Origin: Waddliaceae bacterium
Lineage (GTDB): Bacteria; Chlamydiota; Chlamydiia; Chlamydiales; SLFE01
Length of the DNA: 64,000 bases
Assembly: GCA_963771045.1 (NCBI GenBank)
Contig: CAVYRW010000004.1
Coordinates: 832,001-896,000 of the forward strand
Direction: 5' to 3'
The notes beneath the pieces were generated by a model. That model saw only the letters and a program-made list of their open reading frames with translations, was not told the DNA's origin and searched no databases. The number at the start of each line of letters is the position of its first letter. Positions within the stretch are counted from its first letter, which is position 1. A program made the translations under genes and the position numbers. Of the stretch, positions 18,480-55,660 are shown in pieces.

Positions 18480-20663
18480 TTACGATATTTGTATGCGTCC
18501 CAGGGGCTGTATGCGGATGTCGGAGACGATCTCCTGGTAGGAGACCACGGAAATATCGGTAAATTCCATTTCGATCAGTTTGCGCACGAATCGGCGAACG
18601 TCGATAGCAGTCAGGATCACCGGCGGCTGGCCTCCCGGCGGGGGAGGGGCGACGGTCGTTCTGACGCTTTGCAAAATGAGTTGCACAGAGTCGGGGTCCA
18701 AGGCCAGGTATGAGCCCGCAGACGTTTGTTTAATGGCGCCTCGCACCATGTCTTCAATCTCTGGGTCCAATATATACACCGAAAGGACGGATTGGCCCTG
18801 AGAATATTTATAGCTTATATATCTTTTGAGCGAAGACCTCACGTATTCGGTTAGAAGAACGGTGTCTTTTTCGGTCTGCGCCCATTCGCTGAGCGATTCT
18901 AAAATCGTTCTTAGATCCTTGACCGATATTTGCTCCTGGATGAGCCGTTTCATAATATCGGTCATCTTTTGCAGGGGGATCAGGCGGGTCACTTCCTTGA
19001 CAAGGTCGGGGAAGGATTTTTCCATAAATTCAAGCATGGCTTTGGTTTCCTGAATTCCCACGAATTCTCCCGCATAGCCTCTGAAAAAGTAAGACAAATG
19101 CAGGATCACCACCTCAAGAGGCCCCCAGTATTTAATGCCGGCTTTGTCGAGAAGCTCTTGATATTGCTTTTCGACCCATTGAGAGGGAAGGCCGAGGGAA
19201 TTTTTATAAGTGGTAAATGGAAGGTTGTACCTTTGCAGGTTGTCCTCGGATTCATTGGTGAGAACCATTCCTTCAAGAATTTTACCACGAATGATGGGCA
19301 CCTCGTTGAGGTGGATGGAATATTCGTCTTTTTCAAGCGACGGCGAGTCCGTTCTGACGTGGACGCCGGGAAAGCGGACGCCCAGGTCGTGATAGAGGGC
19401 GTGGCGCATCTTCGGGATCATCTGGTCGATAAAGCTGATATTTTTTCCGCGCGTCGATTCTGTAATCAAACGGGACATGTCGGCCCCTACTTCCAGGATG
19501 ACGGGGAGCGTGAGCGAATAAGAGTCGATGCCTCCGCCCGAGACGACTTTATGCCCCTTGACCGGCGTTTGCACTGACGGAGCAGACGCTGTGCCCCCTT
19601 CGCCTCCGGGGCCTCCGCCCGTCGCCATCTCCCTTTCGGCGCGCATTTGCCCTGCCGACCAGAGGGCATAGCCGATGATTCCCATGATTGAGGCCAGAAA
19701 CATAAAAGGAGGGAGAGGAAAACCAGGGATCAGCCCAATTCCCATGAGGATAGCGCCGGCAATCAAAATCGCTTTTGGCTGGGCCATCAGCTGGCCGGAA
19801 ATATCGGTTCCCAGGTTGGAATTTGCCTCCTCGCTGGAAACACGGGTTGTCACGATACCGGCAGTGATGGAAATCAGGAGGGCGGGGATTTGAGAGACGA
19901 GCCCGTCTCCGATCGAGAGTATCGAGTAGGTATGTACGGCTGTCATCGCGTCCATTTTATTTAAGCCTATACCGATAATCAGTCCTCCGACGATGTTGAT
20001 CAGCGTAATCACAAGGCCGGCGATGGCGTCTCCTTTCACGAACTTCATCGCACCGTCCATAGCGCCGTAGAGCTGGCTTTCTTTTTGTATGCCCAGCCGT
20101 TTCTCACGCGCGGTGTCCGAATCGATCATGCCCGCTCGCAGATCGGCATCGATACTCATCTGTTTACCCGGCATAGCGTCCAATGTGAATCTAGCCGCGA
20201 CCTCTGCGACCCTTTCAGCCCCTTTGACGATGACGATAAACTGAACCAGCGTGATAATTAAAAAGATAATGCCGCCGACTACAAAGTTTCCTCCCACCAC
20301 AAAATCGCCGAAACCAAAAATAATTTCCCCTGCATTTGCCTGAAGAAGAATCTGCCTGGTGGTGGCAATGTTGAGCCCTAAACGATAAAGAGTTGTAAGT
20401 AACAGCAACGAGGGAAAAATCGACAGTTCGATTGCGCTCTTAATATACACCGAAACGATAAGTAAAGAAATCGCCGCAGTCAGGTTGAAAGCGATGAAGT
20501 AATCGAGCGCTGCCGGCGGAACGGGTATGATAATTAAAGATAAAATAGCAACGATGACCAGTACAAGTACTATGTCGCTGGATCTGGAAATGTTGGCCAT
20601 CGATCTCTCGCCGCCCAGCCTTGCGGATATTCCGTCCAGTATATTTCTTAATGATTTGAACAT
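18480..20663 (-). CDS. sctV: T3SS export apparatus protein SctV (CdsV/LcrD)
   Basis: RVAEVAARFTLDAMPGKQMSIDADL, YGAMDGAMKFVKGDA. Confidence 0.97.
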   Translation of the reverse strand: MFKSLRNILDGISARLGGERSMANISRSSDIVLVLVIVAILSLIIIPVPPAALDYFIAFNLTAAISLLIVSVYIKSAIELSIFPSLLLLTTLYRLGLNIATTRQILLQANAGEIIFGFGDFVVGGNFVVGGIIFLIITLVQFIVIVKGAERVAEVAARFTLDAMPGKQMSIDADLRAGMIDSDTAREKRLGIQKESQLYGAMDGAMKFVKGDAIAGLVITLINIVGGLIIGIGLNKMDAMTAVHTYSILSIGDGLVSQIPALLISITAGIVTTRVSSEEANSNLGTDISGQLMAQPKAILIAGAILMGIGLIPGFPLPPFMFLASIMGIIGYALWSAGQMRAEREMATGGGPGGEGGTASAPSVQTPVKGHKVVSGGGIDSYSLTLPVILEVGADMSRLITESTRGKNISFIDQMIPKMRHALYHDLGVRFPGVHVRTDSPSLEKDEYSIHLNEVPIIRGKILEGMVLTNESEDNLQRYNLPFTTYKNSLGLPSQWVEKQYQELLDKAGIKYWGPLEVVILHLSYFFRGYAGEFVGIQETKAMLEFMEKSFPDLVKEVTRLIPLQKMTDIMKRLIQEQISVKDLRTILESLSEWAQTEKDTVLLTEYVRSSLKRYISYKYSQGQSVLSVYILDPEIEDMVRGAIKQTSAGSYLALDPDSVQLILQSVRTTVAPPPPGGQPPVILTAIDVRRFVRKLIEMEFTDISVVSYQEIVSDIRIQPLGRIQIS

Positions 20664-20677
20664 TGATTGATTTCTAC

Positions 20678-21751
20678 CTATTCTATATCCATGATTTCAA
20701 ATTCTTGGTTTTCTTCCAGCGTAGCGATCCACCTTAAGATTTCAGCCAGCAGTTCGTAAGTATCTTCCGGCACATAGTCATACAGCTCTCCGCTATCCCA
20801 AAGCTCATGTGCCAGAGGAATATTGCGCATGATCGGGATATTGTTTTCTTTGGCCAGTTTAATGATTTGTTCGGCCATTTTATCTTTTCCCATAGTCGTG
20901 ATCCACGGCGCCTGGTCGATTTCCTTGTCATAGGCGATTCCTATGGCGAGGTGGGTTGGGTTTGTCACAACAGCCTTGGATTTTTTGACTCCTGCTGACG
21001 GTCCCTCCTCGTAGGCAATTTCCTGGGCGATCTGTCTTCGCTTACTCTTAATCTGCGGGTCTCCTTCAGTATTCTTATATTCCTGTTTTACTTCAAATTT
21101 TTCCATTTTCATTTCCTTGGCGAAGTTGCGTCTCTGAAAGATAAAATCGGCAACTGCGACAACAATGAATAATAATCCCACTTTCCAGAGCACTTCAATC
21201 AAAAAAGCGTGAAACACCGTGAGGGATCCAATGAGCGGAAGTGATACTGTCTTTGTCAGAACGGGCAAACTCTTGTACATCACCCCATATATCAGATAAG
21301 CGGCGACCGATATTTTAAAGATTGACTTAAGTAGCTCAAACAGAGTCTTAAATTTGAATTTAGCCTTTAAATTTTGTATGGGATCAAACTTCTTTATATC
21401 GGGTTTGAACACTTCCGGAGCAAAAACCGGGCCAACTGCCAAAAAATTGACCACTGTGCCGACAAAAGCGACAAAGATCACAATCGGCCCCGCGCAGGCG
21501 AATATGACGAGTATACCCTCGCCGTACATACCGGTAATGGTTTGAAGCAGATCGGTATTAGTTACAGAAGAAAATGCAGCAATCGTGAAGGCGGCCACCT
21601 TGTGGTAGAGATAGCCGGTCAGGACTAAAACAGCGGAAACTGACGCGATAAATGTGAAAGCGGATGGCAAATCCTGGGATTTGGCAACCTGCCCTTTCTT
21701 TCTTGCGTCCCGCAGTTTTTTCGGTGTGGCTTTTTCGGTCTTTTCAGCCAT
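20678..21751 (-). CDS. sctU: T3SS export switch protein SctU (CdsU)
   Basis: EKTEKATPKKLRDARKKGQ, NPTH autocleavage motif. Confidence 0.97.
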   Translation of the reverse strand: MAEKTEKATPKKLRDARKKGQVAKSQDLPSAFTFIASVSAVLVLTGYLYHKVAAFTIAAFSSVTNTDLLQTITGMYGEGILVIFACAGPIVIFVAFVGTVVNFLAVGPVFAPEVFKPDIKKFDPIQNLKAKFKFKTLFELLKSIFKISVAAYLIYGVMYKSLPVLTKTVSLPLIGSLTVFHAFLIEVLWKVGLLFIVVAVADFIFQRRNFAKEMKMEKFEVKQEYKNTEGDPQIKSKRRQIAQEIAYEEGPSAGVKKSKAVVTNPTHLAIGIAYDKEIDQAPWITTMGKDKMAEQIIKLAKENNIPIMRNIPLAHELWDSGELYDYVPEDTYELLAEILRWIATLEENQEFEIMDIE

Positions 21752-24576: not shown

Positions 24577-24592
24577 CCAGCGGGAATTGCTG
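24577..24592. repeat. solo right TIR of MITE family B
   Basis: CCAGCGGGAATTGCTG identical to 52540-52555. Confidence 0.75.
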
Positions 24593-46437: not shown

Positions 46438-48309
46438 ATGGACTTTTTTCAGCATCAGGAGAGGGCCAGGAAAAATACTGCCTGGCTTGTCTTTCTGTTT
46501 TTTTCCGCTGTCGTCGGTATGATTCTTGTTACATATTTCATCGTCGCTTGGGCCTTCGCTTCTTCTTCAAAAGGGTATGAAATTCAATCCGAGGACCTCT
46601 GGAACACGGTCTTATTTGTTTGGGTGGCGATTATCACCCTTTTGGTTGTTGGAGGGGCCAGCCTCTTCAAGATTATGCAGCTAAAGGGAGGGGGCGGGGC
46701 GTATGTCGCCGAATCTCTTGGCGGACGCCTTCTGGATCCGGCAGCCAAAAAAACCGATGAACAAAAGATACTCAATGTCGTCGAAGAAATCGCTATTGCG
46801 GCAGGTATACCGACGCCCAAGGTGTATCTTCTGGATAAGGAAGAGGGGATGAACGCTTTTGCGGCCGGCTATTCGTCTTCAAACGCGGTCATTGGCGTGA
46901 CCCGGGGCCTGGTGGAGTCTTTAAACCGCGACGAACTTCAGGGAGTGGTCGCGCATGAATTCAGCCATATCCTCAACGGGGATATGCGTATCAATATCCG
47001 ATTGATGGGCATTTTGTTCGGCATCCTGGCTCTTGGCCTTATTGGCTATTACACTCTTAGATCCTCGATGTTTACCGCGGGATCGTCCAGACAGCGGGGA
47101 AGTGCCGGTTTTGTTCTAGTCACAGTGGGTCTTGGCTTGATGGCTGTCGGTTTTATCGGCACGTTCTTCGGTCATTTGATCAAAGCCGCTGTCAGCCGCC
47201 AAAGAGAGTTTCTTGCAGACGCCTCCGCCGTTCAGTTTACCCGAAATCCCGGCGGTATCGGAAATGCTTTAAGGAAAATACGCGATCATCAATTCGGGTC
47301 GAAGGTGATCAATCCCCGCGCCTCGGAAGTCAGCCACATGTTTTTCGCGACAGGGGCGCTTTCGGCAATGGCGTCGCTTTTTGCCACTCATCCTCCTATC
47401 GACGAGAGGATCACACGGATTTTTTCTCTGGAAAAGACTGAATCTAAAAAGCTTCCTCCCGTTCCCAAAATTTCTAAAAAGGAACCCGAAGCAGAAGAAC
47501 CCTCTTTAACTTTTGTCGATTCTACCGGAAAGCCCAATGTCGATCAAATCAGGCTTGCCAAGACATTGATTGCCGCGCTCCCACTTCCTGTCAAAGGAGC
47601 TATTCACGATTTATTTGGAGCAAGAGCTATTGTTTATGGCCTTCTCCTCTCCAAAGATCCTGAAATTCGTAAAATCCAGCACGATAAACTTTCGGAAGAG
47701 TCTTACCTCGGTGTTTATCGCGAGCTGAATCGGCTGCTTCCCGATATTGACAAAATCGAGATGAAAGCCAGAATACCTATGATCGACATGGCGATCCGGA
47801 CATTGAATTCTCTTACCAAGAGTCAATATGAAGTCTTCCGCGAAAATGTCAAGAACCTCATTTTTGCCGATAAAAAAATCGATATTTTTGAATGGATTTT
47901 GGAAAAAGTATTGATTGATCATCTCGACGGACGGTTTCGCAGGGCAAGGAAAGCAGCAGGCCGGAAGAAGTTAAAGGACCATCTTAGGGAAAGTTATTTG
48001 CTTTTGAAAGTCCTTTCCTTTGTCGGTAATAAGAATCCTAAGCAGCATCTCGAAGCCTTGAACGCGGGACTGAAAAAAATCGGTGTCAAACCACTTTCGC
48101 AAATGAAGAAGGTGGAAATCCGATGGGAGGATGTTGACAATGCCCTTGACTCTTTGGTTCTTCTTAAACCTCAGGATAAGAAAAAGCTGTTGGAGGGATG
48201 TCTTGCCAGCATCCAGCACGATAAAAAGATAACCCTTTACGAGGCTGAGCTGTTTCGTGCCATAGGCGATGCTCTCGGTTGTCCTGTTCCCCTTATTCTG
48301 CCTGATTAG
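46438..48309 (+). CDS. M48 family (HtpX-like) zinc metalloprotease with C-terminal extension
   Basis: NAFAAG, HEFSH, SRQREFLADA, THPP; follows lemA. Confidence 0.92.
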   Translation: MDFFQHQERARKNTAWLVFLFFSAVVGMILVTYFIVAWAFASSSKGYEIQSEDLWNTVLFVWVAIITLLVVGGASLFKIMQLKGGGGAYVAESLGGRLLDPAAKKTDEQKILNVVEEIAIAAGIPTPKVYLLDKEEGMNAFAAGYSSSNAVIGVTRGLVESLNRDELQGVVAHEFSHILNGDMRINIRLMGILFGILALGLIGYYTLRSSMFTAGSSRQRGSAGFVLVTVGLGLMAVGFIGTFFGHLIKAAVSRQREFLADASAVQFTRNPGGIGNALRKIRDHQFGSKVINPRASEVSHMFFATGALSAMASLFATHPPIDERITRIFSLEKTESKKLPPVPKISKKEPEAEEPSLTFVDSTGKPNVDQIRLAKTLIAALPLPVKGAIHDLFGARAIVYGLLLSKDPEIRKIQHDKLSEESYLGVYRELNRLLPDIDKIEMKARIPMIDMAIRTLNSLTKSQYEVFRENVKNLIFADKKIDIFEWILEKVLIDHLDGRFRRARKAAGRKKLKDHLRESYLLLKVLSFVGNKNPKQHLEALNAGLKKIGVKPLSQMKKVEIRWEDVDNALDSLVLLKPQDKKKLLEGCLASIQHDKKITLYEAELFRAIGDALGCPVPLILPD

Positions 48310-48521
48310 ATTTTTTGTAAGTGTTCAGCTCTTCTTTCTATTAACCGCGAAGTTTGCAAAGGAAGCGGAAAATACGCTTAAGCTTTTCTAAGGCCCTGAT
48401 TGCTATCCCAACCTCATTTAGAACTTGCATGAGTGGACTATTGCAAAAAGGTGCAGCTTGGATAAAATAATCTTGTGATAATTGTATTGTGAATCATTCA
48501 TTGAGAAAAGCACATATCTGC

Positions 48522-50831
48522 CAGGGCTTTTTGATTAAAATTCCTTGATAGTAATTAGATTTTCATTTGTCATTCATATCTTAACTCAACTTTGGAGAAA
48601 GATATGTGTGCAAGAGGAATCAAAAATGAACCTTATGAAGAAGGATCTAAATCAATTGATATTGAACAATTTAAGGACCGACTAGAGAGCGTTGCCAGTT
48701 CTACCCAAGATCCAAGATGTAAAGACAATTTAAAACATAATCTTTTTACTCTACTCGCCATAATTTTTTGTGCTGTCATAGCAGATGCTAATAGTATCAG
48801 TGCTATCCATCAATATGCTGTTTCCAAAAAAAAGTGGTTGATGACGTGGCTTGATTTTGACGAAGTGCCTTCCTATAATACATTCTGGTGGCTTCTTGTT
48901 CGCCTCGATCCAAAAGAAACTGAAATGTTTTTCCGAAAATGGACATCCTCTCTTTCAAAAAATGAAATTGATGACTTTATTGCGATTGACGGCAAGCGTG
49001 TAAGAGGTGCCTCTAATAAAAAAAAGACACCTAAATCTCTTCTGCACTCGGGTCTAAGAAGTCTTTCGATGTTGATAAGCTATCGGACACTTGATGGGAG
49101 GACTACCGAAGAAATTAGATATTATATATCCTCACTTTCAGCTGCAGCTGAGAAAATATCCAAATCAACTCGAGGTCATTGGGGCATTGAAAATCAAGTC
49201 CATTGGGTTTTGGATGTTACATTTCAGGAAGATGGAGGATGTCCCGTTTTTAGTTGAAATTCGGTGACTCCATATACCAGTTTACGCAACCTTTGTTTTT
49301 ATTTCACTCTGAATTCGGATTATCCTTTCCCTTACCTCTTCGATTGAAAAATATCCTTTAACTTTTCGAAATCTTTTTTCTGCATCCAAGAGGGTTGTCC
49401 CCAACCATCTTTGCGCCATTTTACCCTTTGTTTGAATACGAGTTATACGGCCCATACGCCGGCTTGTATTTGAGAACACTGATTCAATCGGATTTGTGGA
49501 ATGCAGTGTCTTCCTCAAACGAGGAGGCACTTTTAAACAATGCACCGTGAGGAGTTCTTCAAAACACTCACGGAGAGATTCCGCTGCAGATGGGTTGATT
49601 GTTTCAAGCCAACTCTCCAATTTCTTGAGTTCATTCTTAGCATCTTCATACTCAAGGCAATTTATTGCATTTCGGAAGCGATGATGCGCTTCTTTTCGAT
49701 ATTTTTTGGGAAGATGCTTTTGGATATTTCTGTCTTTATGAATCGTACATCTTTGATGTATAAGTAATTTTCCAAACCTATCCTTCAGAGCCTTAATGAT
49801 CCCTTTTCCTCCATCGGTTATAAAAAGTATTTTCTCATCAAGCTTTAGTCCTCTGCGGTCGAGATTGTTCAACAGCTCTTGACAAATCACATTATTCTCA
49901 GTTGCACCTTCCCAAAAACCAAGAGAATGCTTATTTCCTTCAAGATCAATTGCCATTGCCACAATAAAAACTTTTCCTGCCAGATGATAACCATCAATGA
50001 GGATAGCGAAGGGAGAAAAACTGCTTAAATCTCTATCTTTTAATTCTTTAAGCTGTTTACTTGTCGCCGCTTTCAAATGCCGTGAAACAGAGGATTTAGA
50101 AATACCGAAGTGGTCAAGCAAACCGTCCAGCGCACCCTCATACTCCCTGCAAGAGATCCCCTTTAAAGCTTTTTCTAAGAGATCATCAGAAAATCTATCC
50201 TTATTATTTAGTTCCTGATATACAGAGAGTTGGACTTCCTTTTTATCCTTCCGCAAACGTGGCTTTTTTACTTTTAATTTTTCTCCTCCCACATAAACAG
50301 AACCCGCCTGGGATCCCCATTTCTCCCATCCGGGCAGTGGATCGTATTTAGGTCCGGCAAGCATTTCTCTTTCTGAAGAAAAAAGAAACTCGATCAAGCA
50401 TTTCTTTAAGGAAATAAAAAACTGATCGAAATCGTCCTTAGCAGCTCCAATGAGATAAGCAATTTTCTCTTCGGGGCATGCAAATGAGAGAAGATCTGTT
50501 GATTTATTCTGTGATGTGCGACTATTCATCTTGTGGCTCCTTTGTTTTTTTGTTTTTTGTCAAAATTACATATTGACTATAGGAGCCACCTCTTTTCAAG
50601 ATAAAATTTCAACTAATTTTGGGACATTCTCGGAAGATGCTTCACAGATATCAACAGGCTATGCAGCAGAAAACTTCTCTATCTTAAGAAGATTAAGCTT
50701 GAATGTATTAAGACTTGATCCAGATAAGAAAAGCCTAAAAGGAAAGCGTCAAAGTGCAGGATGGAATAATCAGTACATGGAGTATTTATTAGGATTGGTG
50801 GCTATCAAGAAATTTTAATCAAAAAGCTCTG
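48522..50831 (+). mobile_element. ISAs1-family element, deleted and interrupted by IS256
   Basis: 28-bp TIRs CAGGGCTTTTTGATTAAAATTCCTTGAT / ATCAAGAAATTTTAATCAAAAAGCTCTG; 10-bp TSD ACATATCTGC; DPR, IAIDGK, RGHWGIENQVHWVLDVTFQED. Confidence 0.93.
49235..50631 (-). mobile_element. IS256-family element with intact 415-aa transposase (49282-50529)
   Basis: 26-bp imperfect TIRs, 8-bp TSD GGAAGATG; TDG, QRCTIH, STNPIES motifs. Confidence 0.93.
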
Positions 50832-52610
50832 ACATATCTGCATTTTTGTAATTGTTTTCCAAACGGCGTTATCTTTTGATATGTCTTTTAAGAGGTCAAT
50901 GAGAGTATCAGCATCTTTAGTACTGATTTTATTACCTGTTAAATGAAGCTTTTTAAGGGTGTTTTTGCCTCTAAGGACCTTAACAAGAGCTTGCAAACCT
51001 TCAAGGCTGATTTTGTTACTGGATAAATTAAGTAATTCGATGGTGTCGTTGTCTTTGAGGGCGTTTGCAAGAGATTTTGCTCCTTCATCGCCGATGTGGT
51101 TGTTGGACAAATAAAGCCCTGTTATGCTTTTGTCTTTAAGAGCGTGTGCAAGAGATTTTGCTCCTTCATCGCCGATTTTATTGTAGGATAAGCTCAGACC
51201 TATGAGAGCTTTATTGTGTTTGAGAGCGTCGGCAAGAGATTTTGCTCCTTCATCGCCGATGTTGTTGCTGCACAAGTCAAGCTCTGTTATGTTTTTGTCT
51301 TTGAGAGCGTCGGCAAGAGATTTTGCTCCTCCATCGCCGAAGTGGTTGCCGGTTAAGTCCAGCCCCGTGAGAGCTTTATTGTGTTTGAGAGCGTCGGCAA
51401 GAGATTTAGCACCTTCAATGTTAATGTCGTTCCAAGGCAAATCAAGCCCCGCAATGTTTTTGTCTTTAAGAGCGTTTGCAAGAGATTTTGCTCCTTCATC
51501 GCCGAAATGGTTGTTGGACAGGTCAAGTATTGTGAGGGTGTTATTACCTTTGAAGGCCTCGGCGAAAAATTTAATGCCTTTATTGCCGATGTTATTATCA
51601 GACAAATCAACAAGCATTGCGACGATGTCATTGTCTTTGAGTGTCACGGCAAAAAATTTAATCCGGTTAGCGGCGATGTTGTTCCAAGACAAATCAAGCT
51701 TTTTAAAAGGGTTTTTGTGTTTAAGAGCATCGGTGAGAGCTTTAGCCCCTTTAACGTTAATGTCGTTCCAAGACAAAATAAGCTCCGTGAGGCTATTATT
51801 GTATTTAAGGGTCTCGGCAAGAGATTTTGCTCCTTCATCGCCGATGTTGTTGCCGGACAAGTCAAGCTCTGTGAGAGCGTTATTGTATTTAAGAGCATCG
51901 GCAAGAATTTTAGCACCTTCAACGTTAATGCCGTTCCGAGACAAATCAAGTGATGCGAGATTTGGATGATTCATGAGCTTTGCTAGCTGCCCTGTTGTCA
52001 ATTTTGCATGATACAAGCTGAGCTTGCGAAGGTTGGAAAATTTTTCTATAAGTAAATTAATTACATGATCTGAGATATTTTCGCCGTTTAGATCGAGTTC
52101 AGTTATAGATTTAGGCGTAGTCGAACTCAGAAAGCATTCAGCTATCTCAACGGCTTCTTCATGTGTCTTGGTTCCGATAATTTGAAGAGCTATCTGCGCC
52201 ACTATTTGACTTAAGAATGATTTATCCTTGCCTCTTCTCTCAGAGTTTGAAATTATTTTATTTATTTGTTTTAATGTTTCGTCATCATATTTGAATATTT
52301 TTTTGAATATAAATACATACCATTTACTCGGAATAGTTTTAGGTTCAAAAGGAGAATCCGCAGCAATTCCCGCTGGAAATTCTGACTCAAGCTTCATGGA
52401 AAAAGAATGCGATTCAAGCGTTTCCTCTAGGGGAGCGATAAAAAAGTCAGTGGTTAAAAATAGTTCAAGATCGGTTAAATTAGAGACCGATTCTACGAAA
52501 GAGGCTGTTTTAACTAATTCTGTTTCAGCGATTTCAGCTCCAGCGGGAATTGCTGGAGAATCCGTTCCTTTTGACTTTAAATGGAGACTCCCGGTACTCA
52601 CAATATTCAT
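50805..52610 (-). CDS. RNI-like LRR protein with tandem 27-28-aa repeats, candidate effector
   Basis: Repeated LDLSxNxIGDEGAKSLAxALK; GGAGG RBS; near-identical DNA repeats at ~51040-51950. Confidence 0.9.
   Translation of the reverse strand: MNIVSTGSLHLKSKGTDSPAIPAGAEIAETELVKTASFVESVSNLTDLELFLTTDFFIAPLEETLESHSFSMKLESEFPAGIAADSPFEPKTIPSKWYVFIFKKIFKYDDETLKQINKIISNSERRGKDKSFLSQIVAQIALQIIGTKTHEEAVEIAECFLSSTTPKSITELDLNGENISDHVINLLIEKFSNLRKLSLYHAKLTTGQLAKLMNHPNLASLDLSRNGINVEGAKILADALKYNNALTELDLSGNNIGDEGAKSLAETLKYNNSLTELILSWNDINVKGAKALTDALKHKNPFKKLDLSWNNIAANRIKFFAVTLKDNDIVAMLVDLSDNNIGNKGIKFFAEAFKGNNTLTILDLSNNHFGDEGAKSLANALKDKNIAGLDLPWNDINIEGAKSLADALKHNKALTGLDLTGNHFGDGGAKSLADALKDKNITELDLCSNNIGDEGAKSLADALKHNKALIGLSLSYNKIGDEGAKSLAHALKDKSITGLYLSNNHIGDEGAKSLANALKDNDTIELLNLSSNKISLEGLQALVKVLRGKNTLKKLHLTGNKISTKDADTLIDLLKDISKDNAVWKTITKMQICQSFLIKIS
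52361..52555. mobile_element. MITE family B, 195 bp, in frame within the LRR gene
   Basis: 17-bp perfect TIR CAGCAATTCCCGCTGGA; 9-bp TSD GAGAATCCG at 52352-52360 and 52556-52564. Confidence 0.92.
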
Positions 52611-52657
52611 AAATTCCTCCTAAATTTTCATTTAAAGTATCGCAGTACTTTAATTCG

Positions 52658-52727
52658 TTCAAGAAAAAGGTTGAGTGTTTACCGCTAAAGCGTCTCACCC
52701 TGTAATAGGTTACAGGAGGGGGAGTTG
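52658..52727 (-). pseudogene. duplicate of the aldo/keto reductase 3' end and downstream DNA
   Basis: Aligns to 55987-56057 (TPPPVTYY). Confidence 0.9.
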
Positions 52728-52729
52728 TT

Positions 52730-52876
52730 CTCAAGCCTCAGGACAAAAAAAAGCTGCTGAAGGGGTGCCTTGCCGGCATTCAGCATGATAGAAAGATAAC
52801 CCTCTATGAGTCTGAGCTGTTCCGCGCCATAGGCGATGCGCTCGGTTGTCCTGTTCCCCTTATTCTACCTAATTAG
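52730..52876 (+). pseudogene. duplicate of the last 49 codons of the M48 peptidase gene
   Basis: Gap-free alignment to 48163-48309 with 20 differences in 147 nt. Confidence 0.95.
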
Positions 52877-52887
52877 ATTTTTTGGTT

Positions 52888-52972: not shown

Positions 52973-55660
52973 TTAATTTTTCTTTGTCAGGATATCGGCT
53001 TTGATCAATATGACCATAGCAGCCGATTCCGTTAGGTTGATTGTTTCGGTTGTTTTCTCTTCTCCCATTAATTTGCATAAACTCTGATATAGCTGAGGGC
53101 ATGCGGCAATTTCGCGATCGGCGACCTTCCTAAAATTGGCAATTAACACTTCAGGAGTGAAATGAGTGAAAAATCTTTGATAAAGGTGTTCAAATGATTG
53201 GTCAATCAACTCTTCTGAAATGTTGGCGGGACGAATATCAAGAATAGGACTCAAAGGCAACCCCAAGCTGCTTCCGATTCTGTTTTTGATATAAATCGAT
53301 TGAATATCAAAAGGTTCAATAGCCGTCTCTTCCCTATTTAATCTCTTGAGCAATATCGATATATAATCAAAAACAGGGTCTTCAATGGACGGTTTATTCC
53401 CAATCATTTCATTGAGATATGAAGATTTCGAGAATAAATAATTATATAAGACTGTTTCAAGAATATGCGAGGTGGTTTCAAGAGCGCTGCTGCTATGATA
53501 AAGCGGACCCCTGCAATTGAGCGGGAGGGCATAAAAGGCTGTCGATATCGCCTCAGGAAGACTAGGCGGCCAAATCCTCACAGGAAGCTTATAGTGCTGA
53601 TGTTTAAAGCAACGTAAAAATTTAAGGAATTCAGAATCAAGTTTCTCAGGACAAAGCTGCTTAAACCAATCGATGAGCCAAGCAAGCTGATATGCAGTTA
53701 TTGTCATCTTGTCTTGATCCCATTGATTGAATAATCTTGTAAAAAGCAGCTCGTCAAATTCGCTTTTCCAGTAGTATAAATGCCAGCCATTTACGCTTCT
53801 AAACTTCCCTTTAGAATTGCATATTTTATATAACTGCTTCAAATCTTCCGGTTTTATTCCATCGGGCAAATCTTTCCGGGTTGGAATTTTCTTCACTTTG
53901 GTCAAAGATTCCGGATGGATGAAAAAATCTTTAAATGAAGGTTGATTTGAAGGTTGCGGATTTTGAGAGTTGGCATCTTCAATATATTGTAACATTATTT
54001 TAAACGGATTTCTTGGATCGGATGGATTTTTGATTTGCAACAAGATATTAAGAGTTGCACTCACAATCGGATCATCCCACTCAATCAGCCCATTGGATGC
54101 AGTTGCTAAGATGAGTATCCCAGCGAATGTGGAATAATTTTGATCAGCAGAATATTTGAGTGCCGAAAAACTTATTTTACACAATACATCGTAATAATCA
54201 GCTTCTTTCAGAACATGGCTTTGCAGGGCATCATTGACCAGCTGAAATAATAGGGAATAAGCATGTCCAAAATCGAATAGGTAAGGCTGGGCAACCTTTA
54301 AAATCTTTTTCCGGAATCCTTCAGGAAATTTTGCGGCTGCTTCTAGAACCTTGTCGATCATCGAATGGTTCATCTGCTTTGTAATAAATCCCTTGGACAA
54401 TTGAATAATCAACTGGCCATGGCATTCAATTTTGGTGGCTATGAGCTTGATTATTTTTAATACTTCCCAGGTATCTATTTCTTTTTCTCTCAAGGATATG
54501 GCTAAGTCGACAATGGACTCGCGATCGTTTTTGTCTACACATTCATGAAGCGCACAAAGGAAATCACTAATTCCTTTTGTAGGCTCATCATTGATAAAAT
54601 AGCGGCAAACCAATGCCACTATCTCTTCTTTCTCTTTGTTATCAATCGTAGCGAGTTTGCAAAAAATCGATGACAGTTGGCAGCCGCTACATTGAGATGG
54701 CAAAAATTTGGCGGCAGCAGCGCAGTCTCTTCGGTTTTTATTCCCCTTTACCGAAACAACCGCTTTTAAAATCTGATTTCGTGCATTAGCCCCGTAATAC
54801 GGCTGTTGCAAATCACAGACAATTGAGACGATCGCATTCCTTTCGCATCTCTCTGTCTTCAGCAATATGTCAATGGATTCAATAAAATAACTTGGCCAAG
54901 AAACTTCAGGAATGATGCGGTTGACCTGATCGACGATTTCCTTTCTTTCAACTTCATCTTGAATTGAAACCACCTTGCTAATCAGTTCATGCAAGCCTAT
55001 AAAGTCCCTGTCATATTTAATGGAATTAACCAATTCGACCAGCCGCGATCTCTCTTCACTATCATAACCACCAAGAATTTCAATGACCTTTTCGGAATCC
55101 GTCATAAGGCTATAACAAGAACGTTTACACAAATACTTTGTCTGATCGACAATATTTCGGCGTTCTTTTGGGTCAATCTTCTGAAGAATTTGTATTCTTC
55201 TGTTTCTCTTGAAGCTACCCCCTAACTGATGGGACATTTCAATGAGAGGGCCTCTTTCAGGCCGTTTAATCGATGAAACGGTTTTGAGGGTCTTAATCAT
55301 ATCCTTTTCGCGACATAAGCCCAGATCAGCTACCCTCTTGCAGACATCTTCTCTCTCCTTATTGCTGATCGACGCGACAGCAGACATTACGAGAGCAACG
55401 TTTACCTTTTCCCACTTGAGGTAATCAAAATAATGAGTTTTTTTGCAAAACGACCATGTATAATCACAGATCTGTTTTTTTTCTTCCGAATCATAGCCCT
55501 GCAGAATCTTTTCGGCGATTTTTTGATAAACATGCTTTTTAAAAGCATTTTTTCGCAATTTTTCTTCCCGCCGTGCACCATCACATTTTCGACATATATC
55601 TTCAGACTTCTGTAAACAATCCGGTATCCTGTACATCATTTCCTCCTTATCCTGTGACAA
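52973..55660 (-). CDS. large orphan helical-repeat protein, candidate effector
   Basis: Recurring I...ER..IV units about 35-40 aa apart; AAGGAGG RBS suggests a start near 55639. Confidence 0.8.
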   Translation of the reverse strand: MSQDKEEMMYRIPDCLQKSEDICRKCDGARREEKLRKNAFKKHVYQKIAEKILQGYDSEEKKQICDYTWSFCKKTHYFDYLKWEKVNVALVMSAVASISNKEREDVCKRVADLGLCREKDMIKTLKTVSSIKRPERGPLIEMSHQLGGSFKRNRRIQILQKIDPKERRNIVDQTKYLCKRSCYSLMTDSEKVIEILGGYDSEERSRLVELVNSIKYDRDFIGLHELISKVVSIQDEVERKEIVDQVNRIIPEVSWPSYFIESIDILLKTERCERNAIVSIVCDLQQPYYGANARNQILKAVVSVKGNKNRRDCAAAAKFLPSQCSGCQLSSIFCKLATIDNKEKEEIVALVCRYFINDEPTKGISDFLCALHECVDKNDRESIVDLAISLREKEIDTWEVLKIIKLIATKIECHGQLIIQLSKGFITKQMNHSMIDKVLEAAAKFPEGFRKKILKVAQPYLFDFGHAYSLLFQLVNDALQSHVLKEADYYDVLCKISFSALKYSADQNYSTFAGILILATASNGLIEWDDPIVSATLNILLQIKNPSDPRNPFKIMLQYIEDANSQNPQPSNQPSFKDFFIHPESLTKVKKIPTRKDLPDGIKPEDLKQLYKICNSKGKFRSVNGWHLYYWKSEFDELLFTRLFNQWDQDKMTITAYQLAWLIDWFKQLCPEKLDSEFLKFLRCFKHQHYKLPVRIWPPSLPEAISTAFYALPLNCRGPLYHSSSALETTSHILETVLYNYLFSKSSYLNEMIGNKPSIEDPVFDYISILLKRLNREETAIEPFDIQSIYIKNRIGSSLGLPLSPILDIRPANISEELIDQSFEHLYQRFFTHFTPEVLIANFRKVADREIAACPQLYQSLCKLMGEEKTTETINLTESAAMVILIKADILTKKN

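Follow-up and report, generated by a model that had tools for sequence, protein, structure and literature searches.

A chlamydial MITE lineage that is likely selected to stay open on both strands, with one copy in frame in an LRR gene

An LRR gene and its insert

The 64,000-nucleotide stretch of DNA analyzed here (the window) contains an LRR ORF of 601 codons that is interrupted in frame by a 195-bp element, e1 (Table 1). The preliminary description of this insert agrees with our results in every structural detail: the 17-bp terminal inverted repeats (TIRs) are perfect, the two flanking 9-mers are identical, and the net gain of 195 + 9 = 204 nt corresponds to 68 codons and leaves the ORF open. 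The protein sequence bears the matching scar, TDSP-AIPAG...PAGIA-ADSP. e1 is inserted after residue 19, and the first 18 codons are intact. The same description had named a start codon downstream of the element as a finding that would count against it. With AGGAGG located 5 nt before the ATG at 52610, and with the next in-frame starts at residue 72, which lies within e1, and residue 137, which has no evident ribosome-binding site, the start is instead placed upstream of the insert.

LRR domains were found in the protein, and an F-box hit was absent. In a single-sequence AlphaFold prediction, residues 1–134 mostly show pLDDT below 50, native residues included; this model places the insert outside the LRR solenoid, although low pLDDT does not prove disorder. 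Residues 1–200 have no homologue at E ≤ 0.001 among 1,362 candidates, and residues 87–190, compared with 20 relatives, match only LRR proteins of G001, a genome of the same genus, at 27–30% identity and with a different, F-box-like N-terminus. A contig of that genome (G001:C14; L218 / L206, L208, L210) carries tandem LRR genes with F-box-like N-termini.

Neither a close orthologue nor an empty site of the LRR gene was found in relatives or sequencing runs. Three of four DNA sequencing runs contain e1 alone at 99% identity, with other flanks where flanks are present, and one of these three holds e1 with a 1-base deletion. The fourth run contains 161 bp upstream of the LRR insert. Reads joining the LRR flanks without the insert were absent from all four runs.

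The 3′ end of the LRR ORF has been altered by a second mobile element. Its last 8 codons and stop come from an ISAs1-family remnant, the right end of which overlaps this final stretch of the ORF. The insertions here are nested, with an IS256 element inside the ISAs1 remnant, and the older LRR end was seemingly only a few codons longer. Loss of these few codons fits either tolerance or decay. Most likely, the LRR gene is a tolerant bystander and not a chosen target.

Several further features surround the gene. The 3′ end of an HtpX-like peptidase gene (48157–48317) is repeated at 52724–52884 (161 bp, 87% identical), and the LRR gene and IS remnants lie between these two direct repeats, an arrangement reminiscent of an islet that entered at the end of a gene. 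An 895-aa ORF (52973–55660) of low G+C (39%) and without a Pfam hit lies immediately upstream of the LRR gene. The window also encodes sctV and sctU of the type III export apparatus, which we mention for context only. In the source genome they lie near malQ, a chlamydial gene order. Together with the label Chlamydiae on named records that contain the same element lineage, this order suggests that the source genome is chlamydial.

Table 1. Features of the window referred to in the text (G000, source genome; aa, amino acids)
Feature	Position	Strand	Remarks
sctV and sctU	18480..21751	-	type III export apparatus encoded; context only
Lone end	24577..24592	-	16 bp in common with the TIR; other, non-coding end type
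ISAs1-family remnant	48522..50831		10-bp duplication; split by IS256 element (transposase 49282-50529)
LRR ORF, 601 aa	50805..52610	-	residues 1-19 native, 20-83 from e1, LRR solenoid about 170-580
Antisense ORF, 131 aa	52228..52623	+	created by second open frame of e1; no Pfam hit
Target-site duplication of e1, copy 1 (9 bp)	52352..52360		
e1, 195-bp MITE	52361..52555		third frame without stops on either strand; 100% identical to copy at G000:C4:2127118
Terminal inverted repeat of e1 (17 bp)	52361..52377	+	
Subterminal TTCGT(AG) motif of e1	52493..52499	-	position 57 from one end
Terminal inverted repeat of e1 (17 bp)	52539..52555	-	perfect partner
Target-site duplication of e1, copy 2 (9 bp)	52556..52564		
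Shine-Dalgarno AGGAGG of LRR ORF	52616..52621	-	5 nt before ATG at 52610

e1 was correctly recognized as a MITE: it is short, is bounded by TIRs and a target-site duplication, is multicopy, and has no transposase of its own, its frames not exceeding 64 codons. The stop-free plus-strand frame reported earlier is real, and it pairs with an equally open third frame on the minus strand; each of the four remaining frames holds 3–8 stops. When the interior of e1 was shuffled 20,000 times, both of these frames were open in 0.17% of shuffles. The 131-aa antisense ORF is likely a by-product. As RNA, e1 has a strong predicted fold (z -5.7), the ends alone pairing over 17 bp, and Rfam gave no match at E ≤ 1.

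The TIR 16-mer occurs three times in the window, always exactly, against 0.48 occurrences expected at ≤3 mismatches. The occurrence apart from e1 had been taken as a solo identical TIR and as proof of a family. It does not serve as such proof: it shares 16 of 17 bases with the TIR, its continuation is unrelated, and no partner lies within 3 kb inward. We rejected it as an e1 copy; it is similar to about eight other non-coding ends in the genome and marks a shared end type. This site, L021 (124–319), and L027 (795–989) represent a non-coding type of MITE that has these ends and, further inward, an ACAGAG/CTCTGT palindrome; at least 13 ends of this type occur in genome G005.

Copies in the source genome and a candidate parent IS

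That e1 belongs to a family is shown by other copies. The source genome (G000; 2.57 Mb in five contigs) contains nine full copies, eight in addition to that of the window, with 97.9–100% identity, as well as one deleted copy of 168 bp and one 25-bp end. The 9-bp duplication is perfect in six of the full copies, has one mismatch in another, and is absent from two. Among the seven copies flanked by a duplication, the window copy is the only one inside a gene, the others lying between ORFs. One copy without a duplication (L003 3479–3673; G000:C4:2050478–2050672) is fused in frame to the truncated 3′ part of nrdB. The fused part covers profile positions 116–281 of 281 and is the only match to the ribonucleotide reductase small subunit in the genome; G001 and G002, both of the same genus, have no such match. 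This fusion likely arose by a deletion next to the element, in a gene on its way to being lost.

A diverged second element, e2 (186 bp), lies on contig C2 with a perfect duplication, and both of its strands are open in the register seen in e1. An old copy of e2, 82% identical, sits in frame within a 1,158-aa ORF, where the strand in use is open and the other carries 2 stops. In G001 and G002, orthologues of the 1,158-aa protein match it to residue 191–193 and resume at 259–260, the two blocks standing back to back, so that 65 residues (186 + 9 nt) are missing from them. An empty site, which the preliminary description had proposed to seek for the LRR gene, is thus seen in two orthologues for a related insert, and this is the only one shown.

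A transposase sharing the ends of e1, also named there as something to look for, has a candidate. Three 1,572-bp IS copies in the source genome (L204 471–2042, G000:C4:1021294, and G000:C4:1065784) have ends that are 1 and 2 mismatches from the MITE TIR, and two of the three are flanked by a 9-bp duplication. Each contains a single ORF of 435 aa that scores above the cut-off for Pfam DDE_Tnp_1. A single-ORF DDE transposase and a duplication of about 8–13 bp (here 9 bp) are IS4 traits. The full Y(2)R(3)E(6)K motif, which defines the IS4 family (PMC2266710), is lacking; Gly occupies the Tyr position, and Lys is one place later. Against the NCBIfam IS4 model, the protein scores 21.7 bits compared with a cut-off of 152. 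Among the matches listed, 3 of 15 plasmid homologues are annotated as ISNCY family transposases (30–32% identity over 97–98% of the length). The element may belong to the ISMae2 subgroup of ISfinder, for which we found no confirmation.

The MITEs resemble this ISNCY-annotated DDE element with CAG ends in their near-identical ends, their 9-bp duplication, and a subterminal motif. TTCGT is present in 12 of 17 lineage MITEs tested, at position 57 in nine of them, and TTCGTA occurs at position 48 from the left end of the candidate parent; this motif is likely a cis-acting site. The difference lies in the MITE interior, in which no other similarity to the resident IS is detectable. From these shared sequence features, the resident 1,572-bp element likely mobilizes e1 in trans. 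Four residues vary among the three IS copies, two of these within likely catalytic motifs, and the activity of the copies is uncertain. Where one copy has what is likely the first catalytic Asp, the other two have Asn; that one copy in turn departs from them at two C-terminal motif positions. In five other genomes that carry the lineage, we found no intact matching transposase, with fragments in three and nothing in two.

A lineage of open elements and the case for selection

Relatives of e1 were collected with an end-pair pattern that ignored frame and length modulo 3 and did not require open frames. This pattern matched 18 of 401 genomes of the order, whereas a reversed control matched 1; across all prokaryote genomes it matched at least 115 stretches when confined to 178–207 bp. 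The 157 distinct elements fall into 59 clusters, ten of which form a homologous chlamydial lineage. The interiors of seven of these ten link at z ≥ 4 in a frame-blind comparison, two link mutually, and one links only at z of about 3.5; all ten align colinearly. An interior profile ranks lineage members above all other elements, a ranking that holds partly by construction. Counting decayed sites, the lineage comprises 35 sites in ten assemblies, eight of which come from six families, with lengths of 153–198 bp and 9-bp duplications.

The length is a multiple of three (3n) at 33 of the 35 sites, and both strands are open in one register at 25, members having been picked after the frames had been seen. 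We compared these with 78 elements from 21 non-lineage clusters that have the same ends and a duplication, elements without a duplication having been excluded before counting. Only 22 of these 78 controls are 3n, and none is open on both strands in register. Five are open in at least one frame per strand, and a single control, L088, lies stop-free within a long frame. Same-end MITEs (L088–L202) also occur in records labeled as proteobacteria, planctomycetes, and methanogenic archaea; these are often multicopy and variable in length and have stops in register.

We examined the open register in a 22-member alignment from which one doubtful alphaproteobacterial element and decayed copies were left out. 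All 13 gap runs measure 9, 21, or 33 nt, although 11 of them represent one shared event. Both strands are open in 15 of the 22 sequences, as compared with a mean of 0.5–0.7 and a maximum of 9 in neutral simulations along the tree (3 × 2,000 runs). In a stricter set of 17, from which copies in long host ORFs were removed and to which one decayed 3n copy was added, 10 are open both ways, against 1.3 simulated (P < 0.0005). This excess gives P = 0.001 at half branch lengths and is marginal (P = 0.04) at a quarter. Two decayed copies that are not 3n fall outside both simulations.

Could these frames stem from base composition, RNA structure, or ascertainment? We consider this very improbable. The strong RNA fold of e1 would suit such an origin, as would the selection of members after their frames had been seen, though the searches required neither 3n length nor openness. 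Against it, the other four frames average 3.9 stops compared with 0.8 in register, seven of the ten cluster interiors link at z ≥ 4 in the frame-blind comparison and two more link mutually, and the pattern appears in no control element.

The two strands do not show equal depletion of stops. Among the 22 elements, one strand has 3 stops and the other 17. In the stricter set, the A-rich strand is clearly depleted (6 stops, 37.8 simulated), whereas the T-rich strand has 20 against 34.2 simulated (P = 0.07), a total that is not significantly low because most of these stops sit in two G383 copies and one decayed copy. Two subfamilies share stops on the T-rich strand (5–6 in G383 and 1 in G174) yet have good duplications, so openness both ways is not required for spreading.

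The open register is that in which third codon positions of the two strands coincide. In it, a stop on one strand requires a Tyr, His, or Gln codon on the other. The second strand therefore stays open mainly through avoidance of these three residues, which together make up 1.3–1.6% of the element peptides and 9.2% of the proteome. The element peptides are also poorer in order-promoting residues (23–28% versus 36%) and rich in Ser and acidic residues.

These observations bear on the idea that selection has acted on one strand only, the openness of the second following from codon usage in the first or from capture of a coding fragment. Among 10,604 ordinary 54-codon gene fragments of this genome, 11% are open in this antisense register, which leaves room for the idea, and the unequal stop counts and the nonsignificant total on the weaker strand in the stricter test are in its favor. 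However, of the nine in-frame inserts described below, four use the weaker strand and five the other, and the counts of sequences open both ways exceed the simulations. Nor did a source gene for the four element peptides appear among the tblastn matches listed for this genome or among the database hits. We accordingly give the one-strand idea little credence. The either-way use of the inserts also bears out the earlier suggestion that the element could be tolerated in both orientations.

Selection for two open strands, which we favor, appears to concern the frame and not the peptide. Lineage peptides are 21–42% identical to that of e1, alignments reveal no conservation among the inserted peptides, and substitutions in 15 pairs are spread over codon positions with no consistent third-position excess. 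This lack of codon-position bias, combined with the failure of neutral simulations to reproduce the open frames, makes it likely that selection acts on the frame, in the interest of the element. A functional peptide encoded by the element itself was considered and rejected; the alignments share no common start codon and show no conservation.

Host genes and parallels among in-frame repeats

Nine of the 35 lineage sites are in register within ORFs that have at least 150 flanking codons, six of the nine with perfect duplications. Five more sites fall within long ORFs but are in a different frame or contain stops. The in-frame hosts comprise two LRR proteins, three Pfam-less proteins of G231, the 1,158-aa protein, a serine dehydratase (at its N-terminus), a transposase (at its C-terminus), and the truncated nrdB. 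Tolerance is limited. Genes hold only about a quarter of the sites, and these inserts are mostly close to the ends of the protein or away from recognized domains; were targeting random and tolerance complete, the genic share would be about 70%, given that about 88% of the source genome is coding.

Taken together, e1 is a MITE that inserted in frame into the LRR gene; probably it is moved by an ISNCY-like enzyme and comes from a lineage selected for 3n length and freedom from stops on both strands, by which some genes would be spared. In such a scheme, an ISNCY-like DDE enzyme would cut and paste the element, leaving a 9-bp duplication equal to three codons. An element that is 3n and open both ways would keep the frame in one of three gene landings, in either orientation. 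These landings would add a segment of 54–68 residues, predicted to be floppy, instead of breaking the gene. The element would then kill its host lineage less often, and such harm reduction may be the selective force. Copies inside genes could in turn be shielded from frameshifts and deletion and could serve as a refuge for re-seeding the lineage.

The preliminary description went further and proposed that the element remodels effectors. Host-adaptive remodeling, in which retention of the element would be due to new linkers or surfaces that its peptides provide to effectors, seems unlikely to us. Several in-frame hosts are indeed LRR proteins or long proteins without Pfam domains, as are database proteins P0006, P0014, P0024, and P0031, and the genome encodes SctV and SctU. 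The e1 insert also lies at the edge of an N-terminal stretch of 20 codons that sufficed for secretion of other chlamydial proteins (PMC4209131). Nevertheless, the inserted peptides are not conserved, most copies are intergenic, a single one of the seven duplication-flanked copies of e1 is genic, and the hosts include a serine dehydratase, a transposase, and a truncated nrdB. That the LRR gene was also hit by ISAs1 fits relaxed selection as well. The effector claim is therefore not upheld. More speculatively, the lineage might act as a natural linker-scanning transposon that is selected, in at least six families, for 3n length and two overlapping, soluble frames without stops, that lives by passing from one protein gene to another, and that gives chlamydial secreted proteins new disordered segments, some of them kept; we regard this broader reading as rather doubtful and prefer harm reduction by an element that is open both ways.

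The nearest parallels are the Rickettsia palindromic elements (RPEs), reportedly described by Ogata et al. in 2000 and 2002. RPEs are short, non-autonomous in-frame repeats that add a peptide in unrelated genes (PMC10969869, PMC2229807), and an RPE-bearing guanylate kinase stays active (PMC2229807). The chlamydial elements are likewise short and non-autonomous, have inverted ends, and encode in-frame peptides in unrelated genes, as seen at the nine in-frame sites. In those sources, RPEs are 105–150 bp long, a conserved peptide is described, and the target duplication is listed as unknown (PMC10969869, PMC2229807). By contrast, the chlamydial lineage has lengths of 153–198 bp, 9-bp duplications, a candidate transposase, and unconserved peptides, and it uses both strands. 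The lineage works like RPEs yet is not classed among them because the low identity of its peptides and the absence of a third-position excess set it apart from their conserved peptide, a comparison made with RPE descriptions.

Other MITEs with open frames include the 107-bp Correia/NEMIS form, ERIC/RU-1, YPAL/RU-2, RU-3, and QMITE2 (PMC2229807, PMC2759123, PMC3184786, PMC5896051). In the excerpts of these sources, as in our lineage, Correia, ERIC, YPAL, RU-3, and QMITE2 carry open frames that join those of host genes, in most cases at protein ends; Correia pairs a coding 107-bp form with a non-coding 155-bp sister; and both Correia and ERIC have two usable frames. All five differ from the chlamydial lineage in ends and duplications, and the excerpts describe for them neither a selection test nor a lineage kept 3n and open both ways across host families. 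In-frame MITE fusions are thus already established, and the chlamydial lineage is a variant within that kind. The literature covered, with most subscription journals outside it, yielded no account of a selected two-way open MITE frame or of this lineage.

With this lineage, it can be tested whether the open frames of in-frame repeats are selected, and for whom. It comes with a candidate transposase, clean duplications, both young and old copies, a filled and empty pair, and non-coding controls with the same ends. The lineage further accounts for the AIPAG...PAGIA stretches of low complexity in chlamydial proteins, as well as for a number of short gene calls in protein databases that are spurious. 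Database proteins with lineage peptides were retrieved with peptide profiles, and these hits, being biased to open frames, were kept out of the stop tests; in one set of 31 hits, P0030 was false and 25 of the others were read. Two elements (L126 2501–2686 and L174 301–486) come from a MAG labeled Chlamydia trachomatis yet are nearest to an element of G309. In P0001, P0004, and P0026, lineage peptides stand beside partial GxxExxY, 23S-rRNA-IVP, and FkbM domains, and these proteins resemble the products of disrupted genes, each called from a start that adjoins the element.
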